Below, piece after piece: positions 3,280-60,344 of a stretch of DNA of 64,000 nt. Below the pieces are notes generated by a model. The model was given only the letters and a program-made list of their open reading frames with translations. It did not search any database and was not told the origin of the DNA. Made by a program: the position numbers and the translations under genes. The stretch comes from Botryllus schlosseri (Eukaryota): NCBI GenBank assembly GCA_051294905.1, contig CM119371.1:7504001-7568000 (forward strand), in the 5' to 3' direction. Each line of letters begins with the position of its first letter. Within the stretch, counting starts at the first letter, position 1.

Positions 3280-6200
3280 ATGCACCCAATCGCAGATAGT
3301 TATTTTTTAGTGACTATTTCGCGACAACTAAACGACTTTACCCCCCTCCGAATTTACTGGAAATCAGAGAGCCATATTTAGTGCATGAATTATTTGTCCG
3401 CTCAGAATGAGCTGGATATAGGAGTCTGTAGGGTGTAAATATATGATGCGCTGATGTTAAGGAAGACAACATGATAATAAGAAAATCCACGGGATTCCAC
3501 TTAGGGAAACAGTTCACTTTGCTTTATCCATTCCATCTTTACGACATTACAGAAACGTCACAGTGCTAGGTTTATACAATTTGGGAAGATTTGGTTGTTC
3601 ATTAAACTCTGACCTGTGCCCAATGTCACAGCAACGGTTCAGTCAAGTACCGGCATCTCATAAAAGAGTTTAACCACGATTGCCTCTAATAAACATAGAG
3701 GCATGCATGGATGCTTGCTTCTCAACGGGATTTCAAGAACATGCAGCACAGTTATTAGCCATACCTCAATTGTTTTACTAGCAGTCACGCGTGGTTCAAT
3801 CACTTCCTGTGAAACGGGTTAGTAGTTTTAGCGTGGGAGCAAATGGGAAACTGATAACCTCCGGATATGAGCTGGTAGTTGCGATGCGAATAGAATGTCG
3901 ATGTACTTACTAAATGTGGCTTGAAAATATAGCCGGATAAAACTCACCGTGAATGACAATTGGTAAATTGCTTGAAACACGCAACTTGCTTACTTCTGAT
4001 CGAAACAAAACCCTTGCCTGTGATGATAAAGAAAGGATACATCGGGTTAGAAACGATTCATTTGAACTTTACAGTCAACCAATGTGTTGAGGCTTTTGTT
4101 ACAGATAGAAATATGATCGTTACTAGTGGTTGAGTTGAGTTTATTGGTAATAATTTAATCATTTCAAAATTTTATAGCAGGGGTCTGCAATTATTTTCCT
4201 CCGCAGGCCAAATGAGAAGTAGAAAACACGTTGGCGGGCCAAGTGCGAAATTTTAGCTATATTCTCCAGCGTATTTTAATTTTATTTCTAGATTGCACTG
4301 TTAGAAAATGCTGCTCATCGAATGTGTTGGTAATGAGAAATTGACGGTTATTTAAAAAACATCTATTTGCCGTCATAATTGGCAACAATGTTCAACATGA
4401 TACATAATTAACTCTCATTAAACCCCTATCCACGTTCTGCTATTAAGACTCTAGAACAGTGTTTCTCAAGCTTTTTTTGGCATGCCTTCCTTTATGATAG
4501 CGAAAAATTTGTCGCCCGCCTTATCATGATATTACAAAATAACAAAAAGTGTAACCAGAATGGTAGCAATCCCAATGGATAGTTTGATGGCATGGAAGGT
4601 TCTGTAAATGCGTACTATCCGATATCCCCAAAACTAGTTATAAAAAAGAGGGTTTAAGACTTTAACTGAAAGCTAGGCAGTCAACACAATAACTCGTACT
4701 AGAGTCATAAAACCGTGACTCACACTCGACCCTTTGTTCGCTGACTTGGACTTGACTCGGTGGTGAATTGAAAATGACTCGACTTGACTCATTAAAGTGA
4801 GTTGGACTTGTGACTTGGTTACAACACTGCTTATACTTTGACTTGACAGTGTTTTCAGTAAAACTATGCATAGAATACTTTCTTTTTACTAGGGTTGGGC
4901 ATAATCGCTTGCCTGAGTGAATCGATTCTGAACCATTATTAGGCTTCGAGTTGAGTATTCAAGTATCACTCACTGTGACGGTGTAAGTGTACAAAAGGCG
5001 TAAAAGTTCAAATATTCATCTTTTACGCTGCGAGTAAAAATATAATGGCGATTTTACGTCACGTTAAAGATAAATTGGTTGAGAACGGCTTGACATGGAT
5101 ATTTAATTCCCACCAAAGTCCATAGCTCTGTACTGCATGTTTCGTATGCTGCGACACGACCAATCGAGTTTTCTGGAATGGGAAATGGTATCGAAATTGT
5201 AATTCTCGTTGATAAATAACCTGTTAGTGGTAAGGAGCGTATGTATGCAAGTCTATTTCAGTACCCAAAAAATCATCTTCCACCACTCGACTCGGATAAT
5301 TAGGGTTAATACTCGATTCAGAATCGAGTACTCAAATCATGTGCAATATGTGCTCTGCTATCCATTTTACCTATTTGAAAATTGATACTTGCATTTGTAC
5401 CTAAGTAGAAATTTACGACGTTACTTATCCTTTTGAGTAACATCTGCTCCTGAAACAGCGATGTCACAAAACAGCGATGGCGAATCACCCCCAACCCCAA
5501 CCTTCACCCTCATTCGTCACCCACCTTTTTACATCGGGACCAACCTGCTTTTCCTGCAGGCACCCGAACCAACGGTGGGACCTGGGGCACCTTCTGGCGG
5601 ATCACTCGCGCTGCTGGGCTGATCCTTGGTCAATTTGGTGCTGGGTCACAAGTCTATCCTGAATGCGGGGGACACTGGATTAAAAGGCGGTCAGTTTTCT
5701 TCGGCAACACAAAGCAAATTGTATCATAATTGCAACTACACAGTTTTTTTCTGAATTTTGATTAGAATTGCTTCTTGGAGGTACAGAACTGCAGTATACA
5801 ATTGAATAGCATATTCATATTGAAATGAGCCCGAGTATTTCCTGCTTCATTTCAATATGAATAAACTATGCAATTAGATTAGAATAAGACCTACACTTTT
5901 TTGAAATGAGATTAGAACTACAATTATATCTACAATTTTCCTCCAAATTAAATTAGAATTATTGAATTTGTGAAAAGTAGGGCATGGAATGAAGTTTAGT
6001 TCATCAGAGTTCGTTCTCATAACCATGAAAATGGCAAATGTCTGTAACTCGTTTCGCACTATACAGTTCTCCTGTCGCCTTTATAGGAATTAGATTGGAA
6101 TTAAAATGATAGCAAAGAAACATTTCACAAATCAGACTAGAATTAGATCACCGACATTTTGCTTTATTTATTCTAGAGGTGATCACTAACGCGGTCCCGC

Positions 6201-7687: not shown

Positions 7688-7914
7688 CATGATACAGCCG
7701 AATCCTCATGCTCTTAAAATCCACATCTCCCGGGATGTGGAAAAACAAACCCAGGTGTCTGCACCTTCACCACATATGTCAGATTCCAGGCTTCGAGAGT
7801 GTTTAGCACTGACTTTCACAACCACTTACATAATTCAGCGGTTTTCGAAGAGAGCCAATTCTACTTATGGGTTGCTTGGAAAAGCATTACTTTTCATCAT
7901 ACTTGAGTGAAACC

Positions 7915-10320: not shown

Positions 10321-11286
10321 AAGAGTGAATAGCTCGAAGCATATATCGCATGCGGCTCAACTAGTATTGAGATAATTCTCGCTCATTTGAAATTTCCATG
10401 CATTGAGTCATTGTATGCTGTGGGTTATTTCATACCGAATTAGCGCAAGTGTGAAACTTGAACCGCCTGCAGTATGCAGTAGGTACGAACTCCTGATATT
10501 GGCCATATAACCATTGTGGCAACAGTTGTAGGCTACAAGTCGTCATAATCATTGACCATGTCTATATTGAATAGGCCTAAGGAACTAAATATATGATTGG
10601 ATGCATCGACTAAATCTACCGGCCAGATCATGCACTGTGGCACAATTAATGAAAGTATATTACCACAAAATTACTGGTTACTATTGCTATTACATTCATC
10701 AAATGATACGAATTTACCAAAAAGCAGTTTACACTTATCAAATTACTGCCGCATTGAAATAAAAATGCACAATTTTCAATGCAATTATGATGGATATGGC
10801 TTGATGAATTGAAAATATCAAATGTGAGAAACTTTATATTCATTCATGTCAAAGCTGCAGACTTGTACTAACTACTAATTGAGTGACTTCGACGGTCAAG
10901 ACTAGTTCTAATTACCGATTTTGAAAGCAAATAGTTGTAGTGTTGATATTAGTGTAAATACCAACAGCGGTACACTGGCACAGTAATTGGGTGGGTTGAA
11001 AACGGTACATTTCAAACTATTATTAAAATTCTTTTTAAACGCCGACTCTATCCCGGATATTTTCACTTATCAGGCTCATTTACAATTCAGTAATTCACAT
11101 TAGCAGTACTGCAGTTGCTTCAGAATTGAAACTACTAAGTTGTTTTTATTTGCCAGTTACGGATTTTTAAAGCATGTGAATTGTAATTCTAGTAGCCAGT
11201 TTTGAAAAGTGAGTGGTTCTAGTTCTAGGTTGAGTTGCATTTTGAAAATCCAGTAATTTGTACAAGTCTGCTCAGGTGAGTGTAAT

Positions 11287-25138: not shown

Positions 25139-26758
25139 CTATCTCTTCACCAATACGGATTTGTAAATCTCAAAACATTGAACCACTTTTGGTTTCATCA
25201 TAGTCCATTTGTCTTGAGATAATTCATACTTTTCAATTGCATTAGAGTTTTCGAAATATGCTACTGCAAAAATCCACTTGCCAATGTGATAAGCAGATAC
25301 CCGACCATGACAAGCATTCATAGAAGATAATGAAGTCCATTGAGCTGAAGTAACATCGTAACATTCTACCCTGTCAATTTTCGTTCCTATACTCCAGCCA
25401 CCGATCACAAATATCTTCTGATCAACTGCAACAACACCACTCCCCCACACAGGATATCTCATGGGGTTGAGATCAACCCACTCTGACGAGGATGGAGTGA
25501 ATCTGCAGAATGATGAAACTATGCGATCATTTTTTCCTACGCCTCCGACACAATAAATGGAATCATTCAATGATACGAGACTTGTTAAACGAATAGCTGA
25601 AGGTTTGTCTTTCAATTGAAACCATTGATTCGCAGGGGAAGTAAATATTTCCACATCACTTGTTGCTTTACCATTGCTTCCTCCAACAATGAATATCGAT
25701 CCTGACAAAGAAACTGAGCGAGGATCAGATCCATGGTAACAAATCATATCTTTCATCCTTTCCCATTTTGAATTTTTGCTCTGAAAATTGAGACGATGAA
25801 CTGATTTATTTCTACATAAAACGTAGATGTATGAGTCTAGACAAATCGGTGTAAACACTGGTAAATTCCTAAACTTTTCCTCGTGAAACTTCTCTAGCTT
25901 CTCAGTTACTGGATTGACGGATCTGATACAATCTGCCTGATTGTCAAAGAGAATTATCAATTCATCTCTGCTGATTTCTCCGTTTGTTTTCTGTGATGCT
26001 TTCAACAGATGTCGAGTGATCAACTTGTACAGTCCAAAGTCATTACCGATAATTTGGTTTGATTCCAAGAGACGTTGTAAAAATGCCGAAGAGACTTCAT
26101 TAAATTTGATCGCTTTAAGACATTCGTGCAAATGTTCCTGATTTTTGCGATTTTTCTCAACCCAATTGAACAATAACGTTAATTTTTCTTCTTCGCATAA
26201 TTTTGATTGCTCCAACTTCACAAAATTCTGGATGCAAGATTTTTCAATATTTCCAAATTCGGGTTGGTTTGATATTTCCATGATATTTTCATGGAAAAAT
26301 GCTCTACATTGCGTAGAGATGGCATCCAGTCCATACATATCGGCCACATTTCTCGTAGAGAAGTAATTCTTTACATTAAGTGATTCCTCCAAAATGTCAG
26401 ATACTGCCTGTTTCACGTCATCCAACTGCATCATGATTGCGACATGAAGAAGATCATTCATCTTTTCATCAGGAATCTCAAATTTGCCGGAATATATGAA
26501 ATCGATGCAGTTTTTCACACACTGAGAATCGACCTCTTTCAAAACAACTTTTCCTTCGCGACTCTCTTTTGTATCATACTTTAACATAGCTTTGAAATAT
26601 GCACAACCAGCCGACAAGACATTTCTGTGAGTGTAATAGACATCATCTCCTACTTGAATTATGAAATCACAATGATCGTTCTCCTGCTTCATTCGATGTA
26701 ATTCTTCCATCATCTTCACTGAATGTTTCTCTACATTTGGACACACAATCTGCATCAT
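25139..26758 (-). CDS. BTB-BACK-Kelch protein, paralog 2, 539 aa, intronless CDS
   Basis: Colinear with paralog 1 without gaps, same domain motifs. Confidence 0.95.
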   Translation of the reverse strand: MMQIVCPNVEKHSVKMMEELHRMKQENDHCDFIIQVGDDVYYTHRNVLSAGCAYFKAMLKYDTKESREGKVVLKEVDSQCVKNCIDFIYSGKFEIPDEKMNDLLHVAIMMQLDDVKQAVSDILEESLNVKNYFSTRNVADMYGLDAISTQCRAFFHENIMEISNQPEFGNIEKSCIQNFVKLEQSKLCEEEKLTLLFNWVEKNRKNQEHLHECLKAIKFNEVSSAFLQRLLESNQIIGNDFGLYKLITRHLLKASQKTNGEISRDELIILFDNQADCIRSVNPVTEKLEKFHEEKFRNLPVFTPICLDSYIYVLCRNKSVHRLNFQSKNSKWERMKDMICYHGSDPRSVSLSGSIFIVGGSNGKATSDVEIFTSPANQWFQLKDKPSAIRLTSLVSLNDSIYCVGGVGKNDRIVSSFCRFTPSSSEWVDLNPMRYPVWGSGVVAVDQKIFVIGGWSIGTKIDRVECYDVTSAQWTSLSSMNACHGRVSAYHIGKWIFAVAYFENSNAIEKYELSQDKWTMMKPKVVQCFEIYKSVLVKR

Positions 26759-29289: not shown

Positions 29290-29300
29290 AGTGTTGGGAT

Positions 29301-29500
29301 CAGGGTTGTAATGACTCGAGTCATGACTCGACTCGAGTCAGACTCGAGTCACGTTTTTTTTTGTGACTCGACTTGACTCAAATCATTTTCTTGAAATGGG
29401 AAAATGACTCGACTCGAGTCAATATTTGGATTGACTCGACTTGTACTCGAGTCAATACGCATGACTCGACCCAAGTCAATGACTCGGCTTATTTTATATG
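29301..29500. mobile_element. Left end of GACTCGAGTC-rich MITE
   Basis: CAGGGTTGTAATGACTCGAGTCATGACTCG; right end not found. Confidence 0.65.
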
Positions 29501-29645
29501 ACTTGAAGATGAATAAATTTGCGAATGGTAATGGCTAGTTCAACACATCTGACGCATTCTGCCGACATCGCTATTTGTCACCACTGCTTTCGTTGCACTC
29601 GTCTGATATCAGATATGCCGTCGAAAAAACAACAGACAATGATAC

Positions 29646-30261
29646 CATAGTGTCCTATATGGTGTCGACACAAGCAAATCGCACGGTTCAATGAAATTGT
29701 AGCACGTCACAGTTTCCATTTGGCTACAGGCAATTTGACGGTGATTTTTGACCGACTTGCCGAGCATCAAATATGATAAAACGGGTATCAATCGAAAGCT
29801 GCCGCCGTACTGATTACGAAAATATAAATTTTATTCCGCTCGCGGCCCTGGAACCCCCACAATCAGCCTCTAATTTTTCATTGTTATGGAGATTGGCATT
29901 GGGACGCAACAATGCTGTCTAGCGAAACGAGACAGGTGCTCGAGAAAAAGGGAGCCAGACAGTATTGTTGCGTCTGTCGTTTCGCCAGACAGCATTGTTG
30001 CGTCCCAATGCCAATCTCAATAACAATGAAAAATTAGAGGCTGATTGTGGGGGTTCCAGGGCCGCGAGCGGAATAAAATTTATATTTTCGTAATCAGTAC
30101 GGCGGCAGCTTTCGATTGATACCCGTTTTATCAAATTTGATGCTCGGCAAGTCGGTCAAAAATCACCGTCAAATTGCCTGTAGCCAAATGGAAACTGTGA
30201 CGTGATACAATTTCATTGAACCGTGCGATTTGCTTGTGTCGACACCATATAGGACACTATG
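29646..30261. mobile_element. Foldback element, family A (616 bp)
   Basis: CATAG...CTATG, 285-bp arms (29646-29930 / 29977-30261) with about 4 mismatches, 46-bp spacer, flanked by ATGATAC on both sides. Confidence 0.9.
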
Positions 30262-32611
30262 ATGATACTATAGAAATTAAACATGGAACGGCAACGACCG
30301 ATTTTGCAGCTTCGTTCCGCTTCGCCGAGGCTGGAGTGGAGAGTTGTTTTGCGTAAGCGACTGTAGGATTTCTGGCATTCCAAAAGCTATCTTCCCGAGC
30401 GCAGAAATGAGAGGGTAAACCGAAATTGCAGTCACTAGAGGGCGCGCGTGCGACTGGTCCTTTGTTTACGTATCTACGACGACGACGCAAGAAGTGTAGT
30501 AGAGGTAGTATTGGAGTGGTAGTAGTGGAGTAGTTATAGTAGTAAAGTAGTAATAGAGGTAGTAGTGATGCCGTGTTGTTCTGTTCCCCGTTGCTCAAAT
30601 GCCGGCGGTCACCGATTTCCGACTCGCGTAGACACCAGAAAGAAGTGGAAGATTGAAGTGAAGTGAAGTAAAGTAAAAGTGAAGTAAGTGAAGTGAAGTA
30701 AAAGTCTCTGAGCTTAGGCAAAAGGTACTCCTTCCAAAATTTGTCATCATACTGCACTTCCTCGATCAATATGCACGGTTTTCCATTACAGGGGGTGTAC
30801 ACAATGAAGTAGCAAGCATCCCTCTTGCTTAGTGCCAGGCCTCCTTGTATTTGGCAGTAGTATGGGTGCGATATAGGCCTACGTAATGCCATTCTCCCAT
30901 CAGACCTGAACTCGAGGAATGAGAAGTCCTTCCCTGGTGCAGTATGGTTTTCACGGGCAGTGTATGGGCATTTAATTTCTATGGTGTGGGTAGACCCCAC
31001 TAACCCATCTGAAGTATCCCCAAGGTAGGGAAACGATGGCAATATCCAGAGACCTGACGAGTCTACAGTAACACACATCTCTTCCTCAAATGCCCGCCTC
31101 GCTATTGGCTCATAGGTCTTTCCATGAATAATTGGCTGAACTTTGAGTTTTTGGGGATTAAGGATGGTGCTACACAGAGAATGGAGATTACGTCGGGCTG
31201 TGAGATGGAAAATGGTGCCGAAGTGACTTGCTGTTAATCGCCATTCTCTGTGACGAAACCACAAACTGCTGTGGCTTTGTTGTCTTGTAGCAGACTGAAT
31301 CTGTTCGGCTTCTTTTTCTGTAATCTGGAAACAAAATAGACAATTTCATTAAAAAGAAACATGGTTACGAACAACTACCACTAGGCCTACTAGGAAAAGA
31401 AGCATCCCACCTTTAAAGAATAGTCCACCCAGTACTGTCTCCAGTCAATACCAAAATAATTATGATCATGAGTGGCTTCAAACAAATTTGCTTTTTTGTA
31501 CATGTGCCGCATCGGAAGGTCTTTGCCAGAAGAAAAGCAGAAACCAATGACTTGATTTCTGACATAATCATTATAGCCAGGCCAGTTTTGAAATTTTGAA
31601 GGTCGTGGATCCTCATCGTTCTTTTGGACAAACAGGTCTTGGCATTTAACCGGAGAAGCTGTAAATCCAAGAATTGTTACATTAAGTTTTGATCAAATCA
31701 TCTATATATATATAAATAACCTACTCTGAATCTTAGATAATAAACCTGTTTTTGATCATCTTTGTCTTACCTAAACGAAACTTGCGAGGCCTGTTAAAAG
31801 TCTGAAGAGCGTCAGTACAGCCGTTTGCAACCTTAAGTGCGCCTGACTCCTTGAAACATGCAAGCATCAAGAGAATGGCTGCAATATGCTTGCACGTACT
31901 GTGAAGACCGGCTCCTGCTGGGCATTCACACGCACTATTCTGGATTTCACCACTTGGCAGTAACGCAACTTTCACATTATAGGTGAGCTGAAAAAAACAG
32001 ACCTAAGTATTCTTGGCCTTTCATTAGTATTCCAACACAATGACTAACATCACTACGCATGGTTGCGCACACCAAGCCCGAGACAAAAAACTTGCGGTTG
32101 TTCTCAACGAAGCTGGCCACCACTACTCTTTCACTTTCTAAAAGATTTGCCCCTTTCTCAATGCCTTTGAGATCTGCACAGCATGATTTGTCTGAAACTA
32201 GTCTGTACCGGAAGTATCCGTCGATCAAATCCTTATTCACTGGAGGTACTGAGTGCTGGTGATCCTCACATATTTGGCTAAATCCTTCTTTTGGCCACTC
32301 CACAGGGTCTGGTGCTGGCAGGACAATTTGAGGTCCCCGGAAATCTTTGTTTCGGTCATAAGCTTCGAGTCTATGTAACAACAATGGAGTAGCTCATAAA
32401 TTTGATACGAGACAGACACACAGATGGACAGATGGCCGACTGCATGCAATTGTTTATATAAAACCCAGCTTAATTATAGTGGTGCGCATACCGCAGCAAC
32501 ACGCCCTACTTACCTTTCCAATAGTTGACTTTTCCGGCCAGATGTCTTCGCTCCACGTTTTTTCAATTCTTTACGGAGTTCTTGTAAAGTCTTTCCAGCA
32601 ATTTTACCCAT
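30257..32611 (-). CDS. SAP + SWIM + YqaJ/lambda-exonuclease-like protein (ISL2EU accessory gene), 5 exons, native C-terminus lost
   Basis: Phase-compatible GT-AG exons: 32611-32514 (SAP: LQELRKELKKRGAKTSGRKSQLLER), 32370-32049, 31987-31771 (SWIM: CECPAG..CKHIAA), 31658-31411, and 31324 onward (TRQQSHSSLWF..RLTAS..DGLV..EIKCP..YYCQIQG). Homology ends ~30700 and the frame reads through to 30257. Confidence 0.85.
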
Positions 32612-32741
32612 TACTAAATCATACAAGAACTGCGAACGTCGCTCGGGTACTGCTGATGTATGGAGTCACACGCAACTGCAACGCGACTGAAAGGACCAGA
32701 GCTCTCGATTCCACCAAGTGGTGACCGCAGTTTACCCTCTC
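30409..32741. mobile_element. ISL2EU (PHIS group) DNA transposon, internally deleted
   Basis: Perfect 12-bp TIR GAGAGGGTAAAC and 2-bp TSD AT (30407-8, 32742-3), confirmed against uninterrupted B copies. Carries a convergent THAP ORF and YqaJ exonuclease gene. Confidence 0.9.
30568..30666 (+). pseudogene. N-terminal THAP zinc-finger fragment of the ISL2EU transposase
   Basis: MPCCSVPRCSNAGGHRFPTRVDTRKKWKIEVK* matches the THAP CxxxxC..HxFP..RxxW signature. The DDE domain is missing. Confidence 0.85.
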
Positions 32742-33201
32742 ATTACTGAATCTGGTCTTGATCGAAAGCTACTGTTGCACCGATTCCGAAAATATAAATT
32801 AAAATAATGATCAGGCACTGATCCACCAAGAATCTGTCTTCCAAGTCTGAAATATCGGCATTGTCCAGAACAATCGGGTAACCGTAGCACAATGGCCATA
32901 ACAATGACCCGTTGCGACTCTCCGATTGTTCGAACAATGCCGATATTTTAGACTTGGAGGACGGATTCTAGGTGGATATGTGCCTGATCATAATTTTAAT
33001 TTATATTTTCGGAATCGATGCAACAGTAGCTTTCGATCAAGACCAGATTCAGTAATTTCTGCGCTCGGGAAGATAGCTTTTGGAATGCCAGAAATCCTAC
33101 AGTCGCTTACGCAAAACAATTCTCCACTCCAGCCTCGGCGAAGCGGAACGAAGCTGCAAAATCGGTCGTTGCCGTTCCATGTTTAATTTCTATAATGATA
33201 C

Positions 33202-33792
33202 TATGGAAATTAAACATGGAACGGCAACGACCGATTTTGCAGCTTCGTTCCGCTTCGCAGAGGCTGGAGAGGAGACTTGTTTTGCGTAAGCGACTGTAGG
33301 ATTTCTGGCAATCCAAAAGCTATCTTCCCGAGCGCAGAAATTATTGAATCTGGTCTTGATCGAAAGCTACTGTTGCACCGATTCCGAAAATATAAATTTA
33401 AATAATGATCAGGCACTGATCCACCAAGAATCTGTCTTCCAAGTCTGAAATATCGGCATTGTCCAGAACAATCGGGTAACCGTAGCACAATGGCCATAAC
33501 AATGACCCGTTGCGACTCTCCGATTGTTCGAACAATGCCGATATTTTAGACTTGGAGGACGGATTCTAGGTGGATATGTGCCTGATCATAATTTTAATTT
33601 ATATTTTCGGAATCGATGCAACAGTAGCTTTCGATCAAGACCAGATTCAGTAATTTCTGCGCTCGGGAAGATAGCTTTTGGAATGCCAGAAATCCTACAG
33701 TCGCTTACGCAAAACAATTCTCCACTCCAGCCTCGGCGAAGCGGAACGAAGCTGCAAAATCGGTCGTTGCCGTTCCATGTTTAATTTCTATA
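33202..33792. mobile_element. Foldback element B2 (591 bp)
   Basis: ~274-bp arms, ATGATAC on both sides. Right half appears identical to B1. Confidence 0.9.
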
Positions 33793-33799
33793 ATGATAC

Positions 33800-34301
33800 T
33801 ATGGAAATTAAACATGGAACGGCAACGACCGATTTTGCAGCTTCGTTCCGCTTCGCCGAGGCTGGAGTGGAGAGTGGTTTTGCGTAAGCGACTGTAGGAT
33901 TTCTGGCAATCCAAACCTATCTTCCCGAGCACAGAAATTATTGAATATGGTCTTGATCGAATGCCACTGCTGCACCGATTCCGAAAATATACAGTAAAAT
34001 ATTGATCAGTCACTGATCCACCTGGAATCCATCCTCCAAGTCGAAATATCGGCATTGTTCGAACAATCGGAGAGTCGCAACGGGTCATTGTTATGGTCAT
34101 TGTGTTGCGGTTACCAGATTGTTCTGAACAATCCCGATATTTCAGACTTGGAGGACAGATTTTAGGTGGATCATTGCCTGATCATAATTTAAATTTATAT
34201 TTTCGGAATCAGTGCAACAGTAGCTTTAACGGCAACGACCGATTTTGCAGCTTCGTTCCGCTTCGCCGGGGCTGGAGTGGAGAATTGTTTTGCGTAAGCG
34301 A
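33800..34301. mobile_element. Foldback element B3, spacer in opposite orientation, right arm rearranged and truncated
   Basis: Left arm intact. Right arm breaks at ~34227 and is followed by a second copy of left-arm sequence to ~34301. Confidence 0.8.
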
Positions 34302-34537
34302 TTCAGGGATATATAGAACTCCGGGATGACTGACTGCGTCAATTGCGTCATCGCGGTATTACCTAAGTGGGTCCAGATTCGCGCATTCAGTTTTGATGCA
34401 CGTTCCGTTCAGCCGCTTCATCTGTGTGTAATTTTAAGTTTCTGAGAGCGGTAGACGAGGCATATAATATCCATGTTTATGTTATTATATAAAGCTAGAG
34501 GTTAACTAGGTTATGAGATGTTCAGGTAGTCTGAAAC

Positions 34538-35128
34538 TATAGAAATTAAACATGGAACGGCAACGACCGATTTTGCAGCTTCGTTCCGCTTCGCAGAGGC
34601 TGGAGAGGAGACTTGTTTTGCGTAAGCGACTGTAGGATTTCTGGCAATCCAAAAGCTATCTTCCCGAGCGCAGAAATTCTTGAATCTGGTCTTGATCGGA
34701 AGCTACTGTTGCACCGATTCCGAAAATATAAATTTAAATAATGATCAGGCACTGATCCACCTAGAATCTGTCCTCCAAGTCTGAAATATCGGCATTGTTC
34801 AGAACAATCGAGTAACCGCAACACAATGACCATAACAATGACCCGTTGCGACTCTCCGATTGTTCGAACAATGCCGATATTTCAGACTTGGAGGACGGAT
34901 TCTAGGTGGATCAGTGCCTGATAATTATTTTACTTCATATTTTCGGAATCAGTGCAACAGTAGCTTTCGATCAAGACCAGATTCAATAATTTCTGCGCTC
35001 GGGAAGATAGCTTTTGGATTGCCAGAAATCCTACTGTCGCTTACGCAAAACGATTCTCCACTCCAGCCCCGGCGAAGCGGAACGAAGCTGCAAAATCGGT
35101 CGTTGCCGTTCCATGTTTAATTTCTATA
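34538..35128. mobile_element. Foldback element B4 (591 bp)
   Basis: Complete arms. Flanks CTGAAAC / GTTTCAT are not a direct repeat. Confidence 0.9.
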
Positions 35129-35231
35129 GTTTCATGCTCCAACCTACTGAGCTATATAAACAACCAAATATCATAAAGATTGGTTTTAAAAGAGCAGCAA
35201 CACGAAAAATCAGAGCAGGGTTGGTTCGATT

Positions 35232-35570
35232 ATGTTCACAATAAGAACAATTTTGTTCACAATAAGAACAGTCTCATGTTCACAATAAGGACAGTCATGT
35301 TCACAATAAGAGCAGTCTCATGTTCACAATAAGAGCAGTCGTTGTATTCACAATAACATCAGTCGCAGCACCACCATATCCCCTGGACACGATGTCCGAG
35401 TGGCAACATAGTCCGAACACAACCCAGACATGATGTCCGAACACCCCCAGACATGGTGTCCTAGTGTCAACGCAGTCCGAACACACCCCAGACACGATGT
35501 ACGAACGCCCCCCTTAAGACATGATGTCCGAGTATCAACGCAGTCCGGACACACCCCAGACACGATGTCA
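35232..35570. repeat. Two adjacent minisatellites
   Basis: About 6 copies of TGTTCACAATAAGANCAGTC(TCA) (~20-22 bp), then imperfect CAGACAYGATGTCCGA units. Confidence 0.8.
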
Positions 35571-58580: not shown

Positions 58581-60344
58581 TATAGAAATTAAACATGGAA
58601 CGGCAACGACAGATTTTTCAGCTTCGTTCCGCTTCGCTGAGGCTGGAGTGGAGAATTGTTTTGCGTAAGCGACTGTAGGACTTCTGGCAATCCAAAAGCC
58701 ATCTTCCCGAGCGCAGATATTATTGATTCTGGTCTTGATCGAAAGCTACCTTCGCACCAATTCCGAAAATATAAATTAAAATAATGATAAGGCACTGATC
58801 CACCTAGAATCCGTCCCCCAAATATAAAATATCGGCATTGTTCGAACAATGGGATCGTCGCAACGGGTCATTCTTATGGCCATTGTGTTGCGGTTACCCG
58901 ATTGTTCTGAACAATGCCGATATTTCAGACTTGGAGGACAGATTCTAGGTCAGTGGTTCTCAACCTTTTTCGCGTCGCGGACCCCTTTTGACCGCCACGG
59001 ACCCTCGCGGACCCCCTCAAGTTTTAGTTCAATTTTAGCTCTTTTATGGTGCAACCTTCATCTGTCTTGTGTAAATATGAGCTGTAGGCTTGTGGTAAAC
59101 AGAAAAATATTGCTTTTTCTTGAAAATAATATTATACTATTTATGTATAAATTGGTAAACTTTCATTACTTCAAAGCTAATTATGCTGCTGTGTTTCTTG
59201 AAGTACGTGGTCGTGTCTTGAAAATCCGGGTCTTCGTTTTGGTATGAACGAGGAGTGCCGAAAACCATTTCCGCAAAGATAGATGGAGGCTAATGCAATA
59301 TTAACGCATAACGCTTCCGACGACACTTTTAGTGTGATCGCAACATTTATGGCACCAAAATGAAGAAACATATATTTTATGAACATATCACCCCCAGCCT
59401 CTAGCGCAGAGATGGGTAACATGCGCACCGCGGGCCGGATTCGGCCCGCATAGAGTTTCTACCGTCAAAGTGAAATCCTAATCTAAAAGTATGCATTAAG
59501 AATGCGCCCAATTTGATAGCCGAGCTTTAAGAGTAGGTATATCATTGTCCGATTTATGACGAGTGTCAACCGTAAATATTCGGGTTCATTTCAATATGAA
59601 TATGCTATTCAATTGTATATTGAAGTTCTGTACCTCCAAGAAGCTGTTCAAATAGTGGTTATGTATATCACATAGGATAAATGGATTTGGTGGCGAGGTT
59701 TCAATCCCTGCATTGAGACAAACCAGGGAAATACTTCGGAAATTTTTATTTCAAACGACTGTTCACTAATTTGCTGACAACTTCAAATCGAGAAGGTTTC
59801 GTAGACATTACGAAGTCACCCTGATTGACGTTACTATCTCCATATTTACATTTTAACCCCAAACCCCAACAAAACGTCTCTAAACAGCAATATGTTTGTA
59901 TCAGCAGGTTATTGGAAAATGGGCAATGAAAATGAATTTCCACACGACGATAGTTCATGTCAGACGATTATTATGATGATATGAGTCATGAGGTTTTAGC
60001 AGTTGTGGTGCGAAACTGCCTTATGCTTTCTCAAGTTAAAAAATAGAATAAAAATTAAGTTATCAACTATTACAAAAATTTGGAGGTCTCGCGGACCCCC
60101 GGTTGAGAACCGCTGTTCTAGATGGATCAGTCCCTGATCAATATGTTAATTTATATTTTCGAAATCGTTGCAACAGTAGCTTTCAATCAAGACCAGATTC
60201 AGTAATTTCTGCGCTCGAAAAGATGGCTTTTGAATTGCCAGAAATCCCACAGTCGTTCACGCAAAACAAATCTACACTCCAGCCTCAGCGAAGCGGAACG
60301 AAGCGGCAAAATCGGTCGTTGCCGTTCCATGTTTAATTTCTATA
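58581..60344. mobile_element. Foldback element B5 (591 bp) with nested hAT
   Basis: TATAG...CTATA, perfect 7-bp TSD GCCCTAC. Confidence 0.9.
58951..60115. mobile_element. hAT-Charlie-like MITE nested in B5
   Basis: CAGTGGTTCTCAACC ... GGTTGAGAACCGCTG, TSD TTCTAGGT/TTCTAGAT. Confidence 0.85.

Follow-up and report, generated by a model that had tools for sequence, protein, structure and literature searches.

Organization of the ATGATAC locus

Within the window, a 64,000-nucleotide stretch of Botryllus schlosseri DNA (assembly GCA_051294905.1, contig CM119371.1, positions 7,504,001 to 7,568,000), foldback transposons of two families, A and B, are stacked at a single 7-bp site. The heptamer ATGATAC at positions 29639, 30262, 33195 and 33793 stands each time directly between the end of one element and the start of the next, giving the order ...cagaca–ATGATAC–A–ATGATAC–B1–ATGATAC–B2–ATGATAC–B3. 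The original prediction, made from the letters alone, that every junction consists of exactly one heptamer is borne out. The ends that precede the heptamers read ...CACTATG or ...TTTCTATA, and the starts that follow them read CATAGTG..., TATAGAAATT... or TATGGAAATT....

Heptamer 1 (29639–29645) is the outer left copy of the target-site duplication (TSD), and the genomic flank (...cagACA) carries an A at position −3, in agreement with the target motif described below. It is followed by element A (29646–30261), a non-coding foldback of 616 bp with the ends CATAGTGTCC...GGACACTATG. The two arms of A (29646–29930 and 29977–30261) are 285 nt each, are 99% complementary and enclose a loop of 46 nt. 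Heptamer 2 (30262–30268) forms the A/B1 junction and is one of nine junctions of the type A–7 bp–B in the genome. B1 (30269–33194) is a B-family foldback with the ends TATAGAAATTAAAC...GTTTAATTTCTATA and a foreign insertion inside, and heptamer 3 (33195–33201) joins it to B2 (33202–33792), a complete B foldback of 591 bp that starts with TATGG and has arms of ~261 nt and a loop of 69 nt. The arms therefore dominate the elements of both families. Heptamer 4 (33793–33799) forms the B2/B3 junction, and B3 (33800 to ~34322) is a diverged, rearranged B copy that runs the opposite way. The start of B3 is B-like, and its identity to the B consensus is 88.7% when reverse-complemented compared with 81.2% in the direct orientation, which confirms the inversion relative to B1 proposed earlier. 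Positions 34228–34322 are a direct copy of left-arm positions ~20–114 and replace the outer right arm, and on the right side of B3 there is neither a canonical end nor a fifth ATGATAC. The four foldbacks of the original prediction are present as four units, but only three are complete elements and the last one is rearranged. Its division into two families also needs amending: the outer arms of A and B are indeed unlike, but an inner-arm block is ~71% identical between them (families D6/D7), which indicates that A and B are related families.

ATGATAC occurs 28 times in the window compared with 11.6 expected, and the 24 copies outside the stack lie within unrelated repeated sequence. Larger repeated contexts of the heptamer are found at 10703, 24638 and 47021, at 25570 and 47923, at 7689 and 46726, and at 5721 and 43450. 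These contexts, unrelated to the stack, suggest that the window contains duplicated segments or members of a gene family.

The right part of B1 (32742–33194) and B2 are identical at 451 of 453 positions (99.6%), and each is ~96–97% identical to the B consensus (96.8% for B2). Since the two copies share private changes at this divergence of ~3–4% from the consensus, B1 and B2 are local duplicates; their period is 598, the sum of 591 and 7. The duplication could have occurred by unequal exchange, by slippage between heptamers or by a sister-chromatid hop. The left outer arm of B1 (30269–30408) matches the reverse-complemented right arm of the same element at 139 of 140 positions, compared with 94–95% complementarity in typical B arms, and this match suggests conversion, perhaps tied to the nested insertion. 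The inverted B3 is either old or a member of another subfamily, and A is the youngest unit. Unlike the duplicates B1 and B2, the units A, B and B3 are set apart by family, by orientation and by divergence. A and B3 are independent insertions, and the stack records at least three independent integrations (B3, B and A) and one duplication. The earlier view that simple tandem duplication is insufficient, with B2 as a possible duplicate, agrees with this comparison.

Families A and B in the genome

We sampled copies of both families from the 495-Mb, 219-contig assembly using searches of its own genome and fetched stretches, so the sample consists of best-scoring copies and is not random. There are 1658 first-look candidates and 593 exact 24-nt ends for the B family, and 2181 candidates and 1786 exact 24-nt ends for the A family. 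Outside the window, the flanking 7-mers are identical on both sides in 26 of 29 B copies and in 27 of 29 A copies. The remaining copies are off by one base, through a mismatch or an offset, except for one B copy that has no TSD. Because the 7-mers vary from copy to copy, the heptamer is not part of the element and is a true TSD. The 40 scored A copies are 99–100% identical to the A element of the window, and the B copies show a median identity of 98.3% to the B consensus. Longer forms with A-type ends are also present. Many of these are ~2.1 kb, one is 5250 bp (L083, with a perfect 7-bp TSD, GTCTGTC, and a nested B), and a further long A form lies at L003:2699–3654.

Young A copies are found at the same position (TSD GTGAAAG) in different copies of another repeat at three loci (L039, L046 and L056), the flanks of which are ~5% diverged, and a fourth A (L055) lies 37 bp from this insertion position. 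The GTGAAAG position is a hotspot set by sequence, inside a repeat family.

Stacks at other loci

The search for CTATR-Nn-YATAG junctions suggested with the original prediction shows a sharp peak at n = 7, with 14 matches compared with 0–4 at each other n between 0 and 15 (269,802 bases, comprising the window and 57 loci; Poisson P ~1e-9). Genome-wide there are ten places where an exact B start lies 0–30 bp after an exact A end, nine of them at exactly 7 bp and one at 2 bp. The nine heptamers are all different (ATGATAC, ATTTCAC, GTCTGAC, GTTACAT, CTTAAAC, CTTACAT, GTCATAC, GTACTAC and GTTCAAC), and A–7 bp–B is therefore found at eight loci besides the window. Exact B–B junctions with 0–30 bp between the ends occur only once genome-wide (L003); the B–B junctions of the window are missed by this exact pattern because B2 and B3 start with TATGG.

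Complete stacks, in which n elements are accompanied by n+1 identical heptamers, are seen at three loci. At L059, ATTTCAC is present three times around A and B; at L002, ATCGAAC is present three times around B and an 80%-identical relative of B (B′); and at C4:18518354–18519566, A and B lie among three copies of GTTACAT, and another end, ...CTCTATA, stands on the left. In each of them the junction is one TSD length and matches the outer TSD, as double insertion predicts; a comparison of the spacer with the outer flank had been suggested with the original prediction. At L003, three copies of GTACAAT join a TATAGATAACTAA-type end, two B elements and a long A form. A 7-kb coding element, described below, lies in an array of four GTGAGAC heptamers composed of the element, a TATA remnant, a 5′-deleted B and the flank. 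Since the internal heptamer is always the outer TSD of its own locus, mobile composites and inventions of the assembler are excluded as the origin of this pattern. Among the perfect-TSD insertions of the sampled loci, ~10 of 54 adjoin another YAT-type end or a remnant.

Target motif and its restoration by the element ends

To describe the target, we read 44 solitary insertions with perfect TSDs on both strands, which gives 88 half-sites. TSD position 2 is T in 81 of the 88, and position 1 is G (48) or A (23), that is, R in 71. Outside the TSD, A is found at position −3 in 60 half-sites (P = 1.4e-13) and the other side mirrors it, while TSD positions 3–5 carry almost no information. The target is the 13-bp palindromic motif A-n-n-[R-T-n-n-n-A-Y]-n-n-T.

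The termini of A (CAT...ATG) and B (TAT...ATA) both conform to YAT...ATR, so the element supplies A at −3 or T at +3 beside each copy of the TSD, and two restored targets result from each insertion. When the terminal three bases of the element are scored together with the TSD, 65 of the 88 restored sites do better than the original ones (median odds of 118 and 62, respectively). The claim that an element end plus its TSD acts as a preferred target that is re-used is supported by three results: TSDs in 53 of 58 copies, restored sites that are mostly better than the originals, and nine of ten A–B junctions at exactly 7 bp. The terminal repeat of B also holds an internal target, ATGGAAC at positions 15–21, which carries YATRG-ended elements at four loci.

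Such restoration has been described for the P element. According to Linheiro and Bergman (2008; PMC2577343), P has a palindromic target that reaches 3 bp beyond the TSD, with the motif ATRGTCCGGACWAT, and its terminal CAT...ATG rebuild it. The same source derives from this restoration a 'safe-haven' hotspot and multiple insertions one TSD length apart, as in the singed-weak double P insertion, and reports that P elements still favour sites already carrying an insertion (PMC2577343). It also places a P hotspot within the P terminal repeat itself at bp 19–26, to which ATGGAAC at positions 15–21 of B is a parallel (PMC2577343).

Relationship to the P superfamily

The assignment of A and B as non-autonomous, Galileo-like foldbacks of the P superfamily is well supported by the sequence features, namely TSD length, motif, termini and co-stacking. 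Two coding elements lie at C1:19.196–19.211 Mb (C1:19195800–19211200, L088 and L089), both with YATAG ends and 7-bp TSDs, and the first of them is stacked with a B. This first element is 7000 bp, starts with TATAGATAACTAAGG... and has the ends TATAGATAACTAAGGTAAAC (20/20 inverted), with the TSD GTGAGAC; the second is 6294 bp, starts with CATAGCCTTTAC... and has the ends CATAGCCTTTACAAACTAGC (19/20 inverted), with the TSD GTACTAG. The exon-sized frames of these two elements match the Pfam families TNP-like RNaseH_N (6.2e-06, 27 bits compared with a cut-off of 24.6) and TNP-like RNaseH_C (5.4e-07, 29.9 compared with 24). Both coding elements and the long A form at L083 have a 7-bp TSD, and the coding elements also agree with A and B in the kind of their ends and in GT...AC as target. 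The Pfam family Tnp_P_element has 120 matches in the genome, several of them in open frames of 792–813 amino acids. Some P-type coding elements of the genome end in TATAG and others in CATAG, and the single acting transposase of the original prediction is a conjecture.

Two candidates for the partner transposase were considered and rejected. The top P-transposase family (L071 and L072, with frames of 799 and 792 amino acids) has no similarity to A or B and no YATAG end. The 5.25-kb A-armed element at L083 has no open frame above 121 amino acids, and no Pfam match at E<=0.01 was obtained for 33 of its 46 frames of at least 45 amino acids. In tblastn, L083 matches P transposase over 40 residues (E 0.005–0.011), but the match falls in a 91-amino-acid frame that is an abundant, stop-ridden repeat with 1379 first-look candidates, and it was discarded as evidence.

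The resemblance to known P-type systems extends to the target. The target motifs of P and 1360 are given as ANAGT/ACTNT (PMC4168063), and Galileo has a 7-bp TSD with the consensus GTAGTAC/GTANTAC/GTATTAC (PMC2775673, PMC4168063). In D. willistoni, other elements border the ends of 14.7% of the Galileo copies (PMC4168063).

Short remnants are found between identical heptamers: TATAG (L035), TATAGAGTA (L018) and TATA at the locus of the coding element. A 24-bp perfect palindrome, TATAGAGGATGTACATCCTCTATA, is present at eight loci on seven contigs (five exact and three with one mismatch; for example, L054:2124–2147 and L073–L079). Five of these eight copies lie between perfect 7-bp direct repeats, and one of the five is stacked on a B end. 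In the three other copies, the palindrome abuts CAGGGG- or CAGTGG-type ends of MITEs (miniature transposable elements with inverted repeats). The palindrome would be produced by joining two 14-nt ends over the self-complementary GTAC. P donor cleavage is described as staggered, with long 3′ extensions of terminal sequence of 17 nt (PMC2577343), and the short remnants are consistent with excision footprints left by P-type staggered cleavage.

Proposed mechanism and alternative explanations

The best explanation of the stack, and in our judgement a likely one, is repeated integration of P-superfamily foldbacks at a self-restored target. The architecture of the stack, its TSD, the target motif, the rebuilding of that motif by the element ends, the stacks at other loci and the duplication behind B1 and B2 are demonstrated by the data above, and for the rest of the model we infer the order of events, the identity of the acting transposase and the cause of the re-use above the motif prediction. 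P-type transposases encoded elsewhere in the genome would move A and B by cut and paste, and would integrate them with a 7-bp stagger into the 13-bp palindromic target. Each insertion would leave both TSD copies flanked on the inner side by the preferred A or T, so that the target is doubled and usually improved, and any family that prefers the same target could later supply an element that integrates into one TSD copy, adding exactly one heptamer. In the window, the insertions of B3, an old B in inverted orientation, and of another B would have come first, and this other B would have become B1 and B2 by local duplication. Later, the unrelated 2.3-kb element would have entered B1 and the right end of B3 would have been scrambled, and in the last step the very young A would have integrated into the leftmost heptamer.

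Several observations weigh against this explanation. The junctions are ~17 to 35 times more frequent than the motif alone predicts, so motif restoration is not the whole story, and the stack heptamers fit the motif no better than the solitary heptamers (median odds 24.7 compared with 23.0). A and B share only the first 5–6 terminal bases with the two coding elements, and genome searches revealed no autonomous copy with A-type or B-type arms. The best-scoring P family (the 799-amino-acid frame, L071) appears to end with ...GGGGCTTG, not ATR. The 24-bp palindrome TATAGAGGATGTACATCCTCTATA could be a mobile micro-element instead of a footprint. Finally, the right border of B3 is rearranged, so the outer right heptamer of the window stack is not checkable, and the locus is known from one assembly, with no listed piece among the short contigs of four public runs bridging a junction.

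The excess of junctions is real, and it could be caused by proven hotspots, by tolerance of insertions beside existing elements or by homing. For 593 B ends and 893 A elements, and with mean restored-site odds of 271 set against a background mean of 1.12, the motif by itself gives an expectation of 0.26 A–7 bp–B junctions, or 0.52 if either family can be the incomer, whereas nine are observed (P ~1e-11); the weight matrix behind this expectation is small, was applied to the very sites it was built from, so that the expectation comes out too high, and ignores chromatin, local structure and selection. Mixed-family stacks therefore exceed the motif-only chance level, a comparison that the original prediction had suggested. 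In active homing, which would add to repeated integration at a restored target, transposase bound to the resident arm tethers an incoming transpososome, or a sister-chromatid copy re-inserts beside the resident. Besides the junction count, the ~10 of 54 insertions that adjoin another end or remnant speak for it, as do the private variants common to B1 and B2, which are expected of a sister-chromatid hop, and the reported preference of P elements for occupied sites (PMC2577343). The limits of the matrix count against it, and a site hit once is a proven hotspot by definition, beside which further insertions are less likely to be purged; tethering has no direct evidence here. We regard it as a tentative possibility that occupied sites are actively sought, with transposase on a resident's arms or on a sister-chromatid copy capturing newcomers from any related family, that mixed repeat–element–repeat arrays grow like a self-extending cassette and that the 17- to 35-fold excess is the trace of homing.

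The remaining alternatives would replace repeated integration or its P-type basis, and all of them are unlikely. Tandem duplication or unequal crossing-over of one element probably accounts for the B1/B2 step, given the 451/453 identity and the 598-bp period, but as the origin of the whole array it is very improbable: A is much younger and its outer arms are of another kind, B3 runs in the opposite orientation with just 85–89% identity to B1 and B2, A–7 bp–B recurs at eight other loci with different heptamers, and stacks elsewhere join the 7-kb coding element, long A forms and B. An assembly artefact, in which repeat copies were wrongly concatenated, might be suspected from the near-identical neighbours B1 and B2 and from the fragmentary public contigs without a junction-spanning piece. 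We give it still less weight, as every junction has a locus-specific heptamer that also flanks the stack on the left and that an assembler could not invent, the same architecture occurs on at least eight contigs with the heptamer always equal to the outer flank of the locus, and the units differ in sequence, orientation and content. The least probable alternative is that A+B composites transpose as units via their outer ends. The ends are all of one kind and could in principle cooperate in this way, but a mobile composite would carry one fixed heptamer, whereas the internal heptamer differs from locus to locus and equals the outer TSD.

It is also improbable, although somewhat less so than these three, that A and B belong to another superfamily (hAT, Mutator/Foldback or other) and resemble P by coincidence. 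The YARNG-like ends and the nT...An target are reminiscent of hAT, and the genome searches gave no transposase gene in any element with A or B arms. The hAT superfamily has an 8-bp TSD, and the Drosophila FB and Mutator-related foldbacks have a 9-bp TSD. The TSDs of A and B fit neither length, being 7 bp in 53 of 58 copies; in the hAT elements BuT3 and BuT4, 8-bp TSDs are listed (PMC2775673, Table 1). In addition, the A-n-n-GT...AC-n-n-T motif matches P, 1360 and Galileo as reported (PMC2577343, PMC4168063), and P-type RNase H domains occur in coding elements that end in YATAG and have 7-bp TSDs, one of which shares its heptamer with a B in a stack. Likewise, the TSDs around the remnants are intact and bases of the element ends are kept between them, as expected of P-type staggered cleavage with its 17-nt cut (PMC2577343).

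Comparison with known systems

The restoration described for P shares with A and B a palindromic target reaching 3 bp beyond the TSD and the terminal bases that rebuild it, CAT...ATG in P and YAT...ATR here (PMC2577343). The P case differs in its 8-bp TSD and in being a laboratory allele (PMC2577343), whereas the present stacks have a 7-bp TSD and are formed by non-coding foldbacks of different families, with up to four fixed units in a non-insect genome. McGurk and Barbash (2018) describe P tandems with one 8-bp TSD that matches the target consensus at the junction, and conclude that double insertion via target regeneration seeds satellites (PMC5932611). Their dimers share with our stacks a head-to-tail junction of exactly one TSD, and the later expansion by unequal exchange fits B1 and B2 (PMC5932611). 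The dimers reported there, found in short reads, are each of one family (P, hobo, jockey or R1), and their junction motifs are more specific than the solitary sites (PMC5932611), a gain that is not seen here. Unlike P dimers, the stacks of this genome bring different families, a coding element and remnants together at one site.

Galileo of Drosophila, a foldback-like transposon of the P superfamily grouped with Newton and Kepler, shares the long inverted arms, the 7-bp GT...AC TSD and the occurrence of rearranged copies (PMC2775673, PMC4168063), and its subfamilies have the same ends and target preference (PMC2775673, PMC4168063). The proportion of Galileo copies with neighbouring elements (14.7% in D. 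willistoni; PMC4168063) is similar to the ~10 of 54 found here. The difference lies in the TSD centre, which is not conserved in A and B, in the YATAG ends and in the outcome that no transposase gene turned up between A or B arms. The likeness described here is one of structure and target. The R1 arrays in ribosomal DNA and bacterial insertion sequence (IS) dimers also have the duplicated target between tandem elements, but they involve other enzymes, other targets and a single family (cited in PMC5932611). The mechanism is thus already in print, as restoration by P termini (PMC2577343) and as double insertion (PMC5932611). In the literature consulted, mostly in the form of listings and with the supplements unopened, we found no description of mixed-family stacks with shared TSDs. 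What is new here is mixed-family stacks of up to four elements, outside insects.

In CRISPR (clustered regularly interspaced short palindromic repeats) spacer acquisition, each integration duplicates a short repeat and the array grows as repeat–insert–repeat. The likeness to this process noted in the original prediction holds in form only and implies no membership: there is no Cas1–Cas2 and no leader polarity shown here, the inserts are whole transposons, and the repeat is the 7-mer that was hit first.

Nested and neighbouring elements

The foreign element in the left arm of B1 (30409–32741, gene on the minus strand) is 2333 bp and unrelated to B. Its inverted ends, (T)GAGAGGGTAAAC, are 12–13 bp long, and it is flanked by a 2-bp duplication (AT) or by no duplication at all. 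The minus strand of the element holds a SAP-SWIM-YqaJ gene with introns, which has Pfam matches to SAP (8.3e-08), the SWIM zinc finger (6.2e-05) and the YqaJ-like exonuclease (1.3e-11). Contigs of the four public runs cover most of the element at modest depth. A short open frame on the plus strand, 30568–30666 (MPCCSVPRCSNAGGHRFPTRVDTRKKWK...), also lies inside this element, beside microsatellite-like runs at 30490–30560 and 30640–30700. We take its 32 residues to resemble the start of a THAP zinc finger, and they have no Pfam match at E<=0.01. To the left of the stack, 29300–29480 is a run of short GACTCGA-containing repeats, where the contigs of all four public runs reach a very high depth and show numerous variable joints.

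Two further B copies are present in the window. B4 (34541–35128) is a complete copy 218 bp downstream of the stack and outside it. Its flanks, CTGAAAC on the left and GTTTCAT on the right, do not form a TSD, although the left 7-mer is nearly the reverse complement of the right one, and the right flank resembles the flank of a B copy 0.7 Mb away (L004, TSD GTTTTAT/GTTTCAT). B4 may be a B carried within another repeat or the product of a rearrangement. Loss of its TSD via inversion by ectopic recombination was considered and rejected, as the exchanged-TSD pattern expected with B3 is absent from the flanks. To the right of B4 there are two short tandem arrays (35211–35363 and 35380–35560) with units of 21–23 bp (...GTTCACAATAAGAACAGTC...) and ~64 bp. 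B5 (58581–60344) is a solitary B copy with the TSD GCCCTAC; it contains a nested MITE of ~1.16 kb (58951–60115) with inverted ends of the CAGTGGTTCTCAACC type.

Implications

The stacks of B. schlosseri are natural, fixed, non-Drosophila evidence that P-type ends rebuild their own target, one insertion breeding others. The process crosses family borders, since members of two MITE-like families, a coding element and remnants are found at one shared heptamer, and it yields a sharply defined 13-bp target for a P-type transposase. For annotation, such stacks call for caution, since they resemble single long composite repeats. Transposons have been proposed to turn into satellites, and stacking followed by local duplication, as in B1 and B2, is the opening stage of that route. 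Because the junctions outnumber what the motif alone predicts, the idea of homing to occupied sites can be put to the test in this genome; if homing is true, such arrays would seed satellites or rearrangement hotspots.

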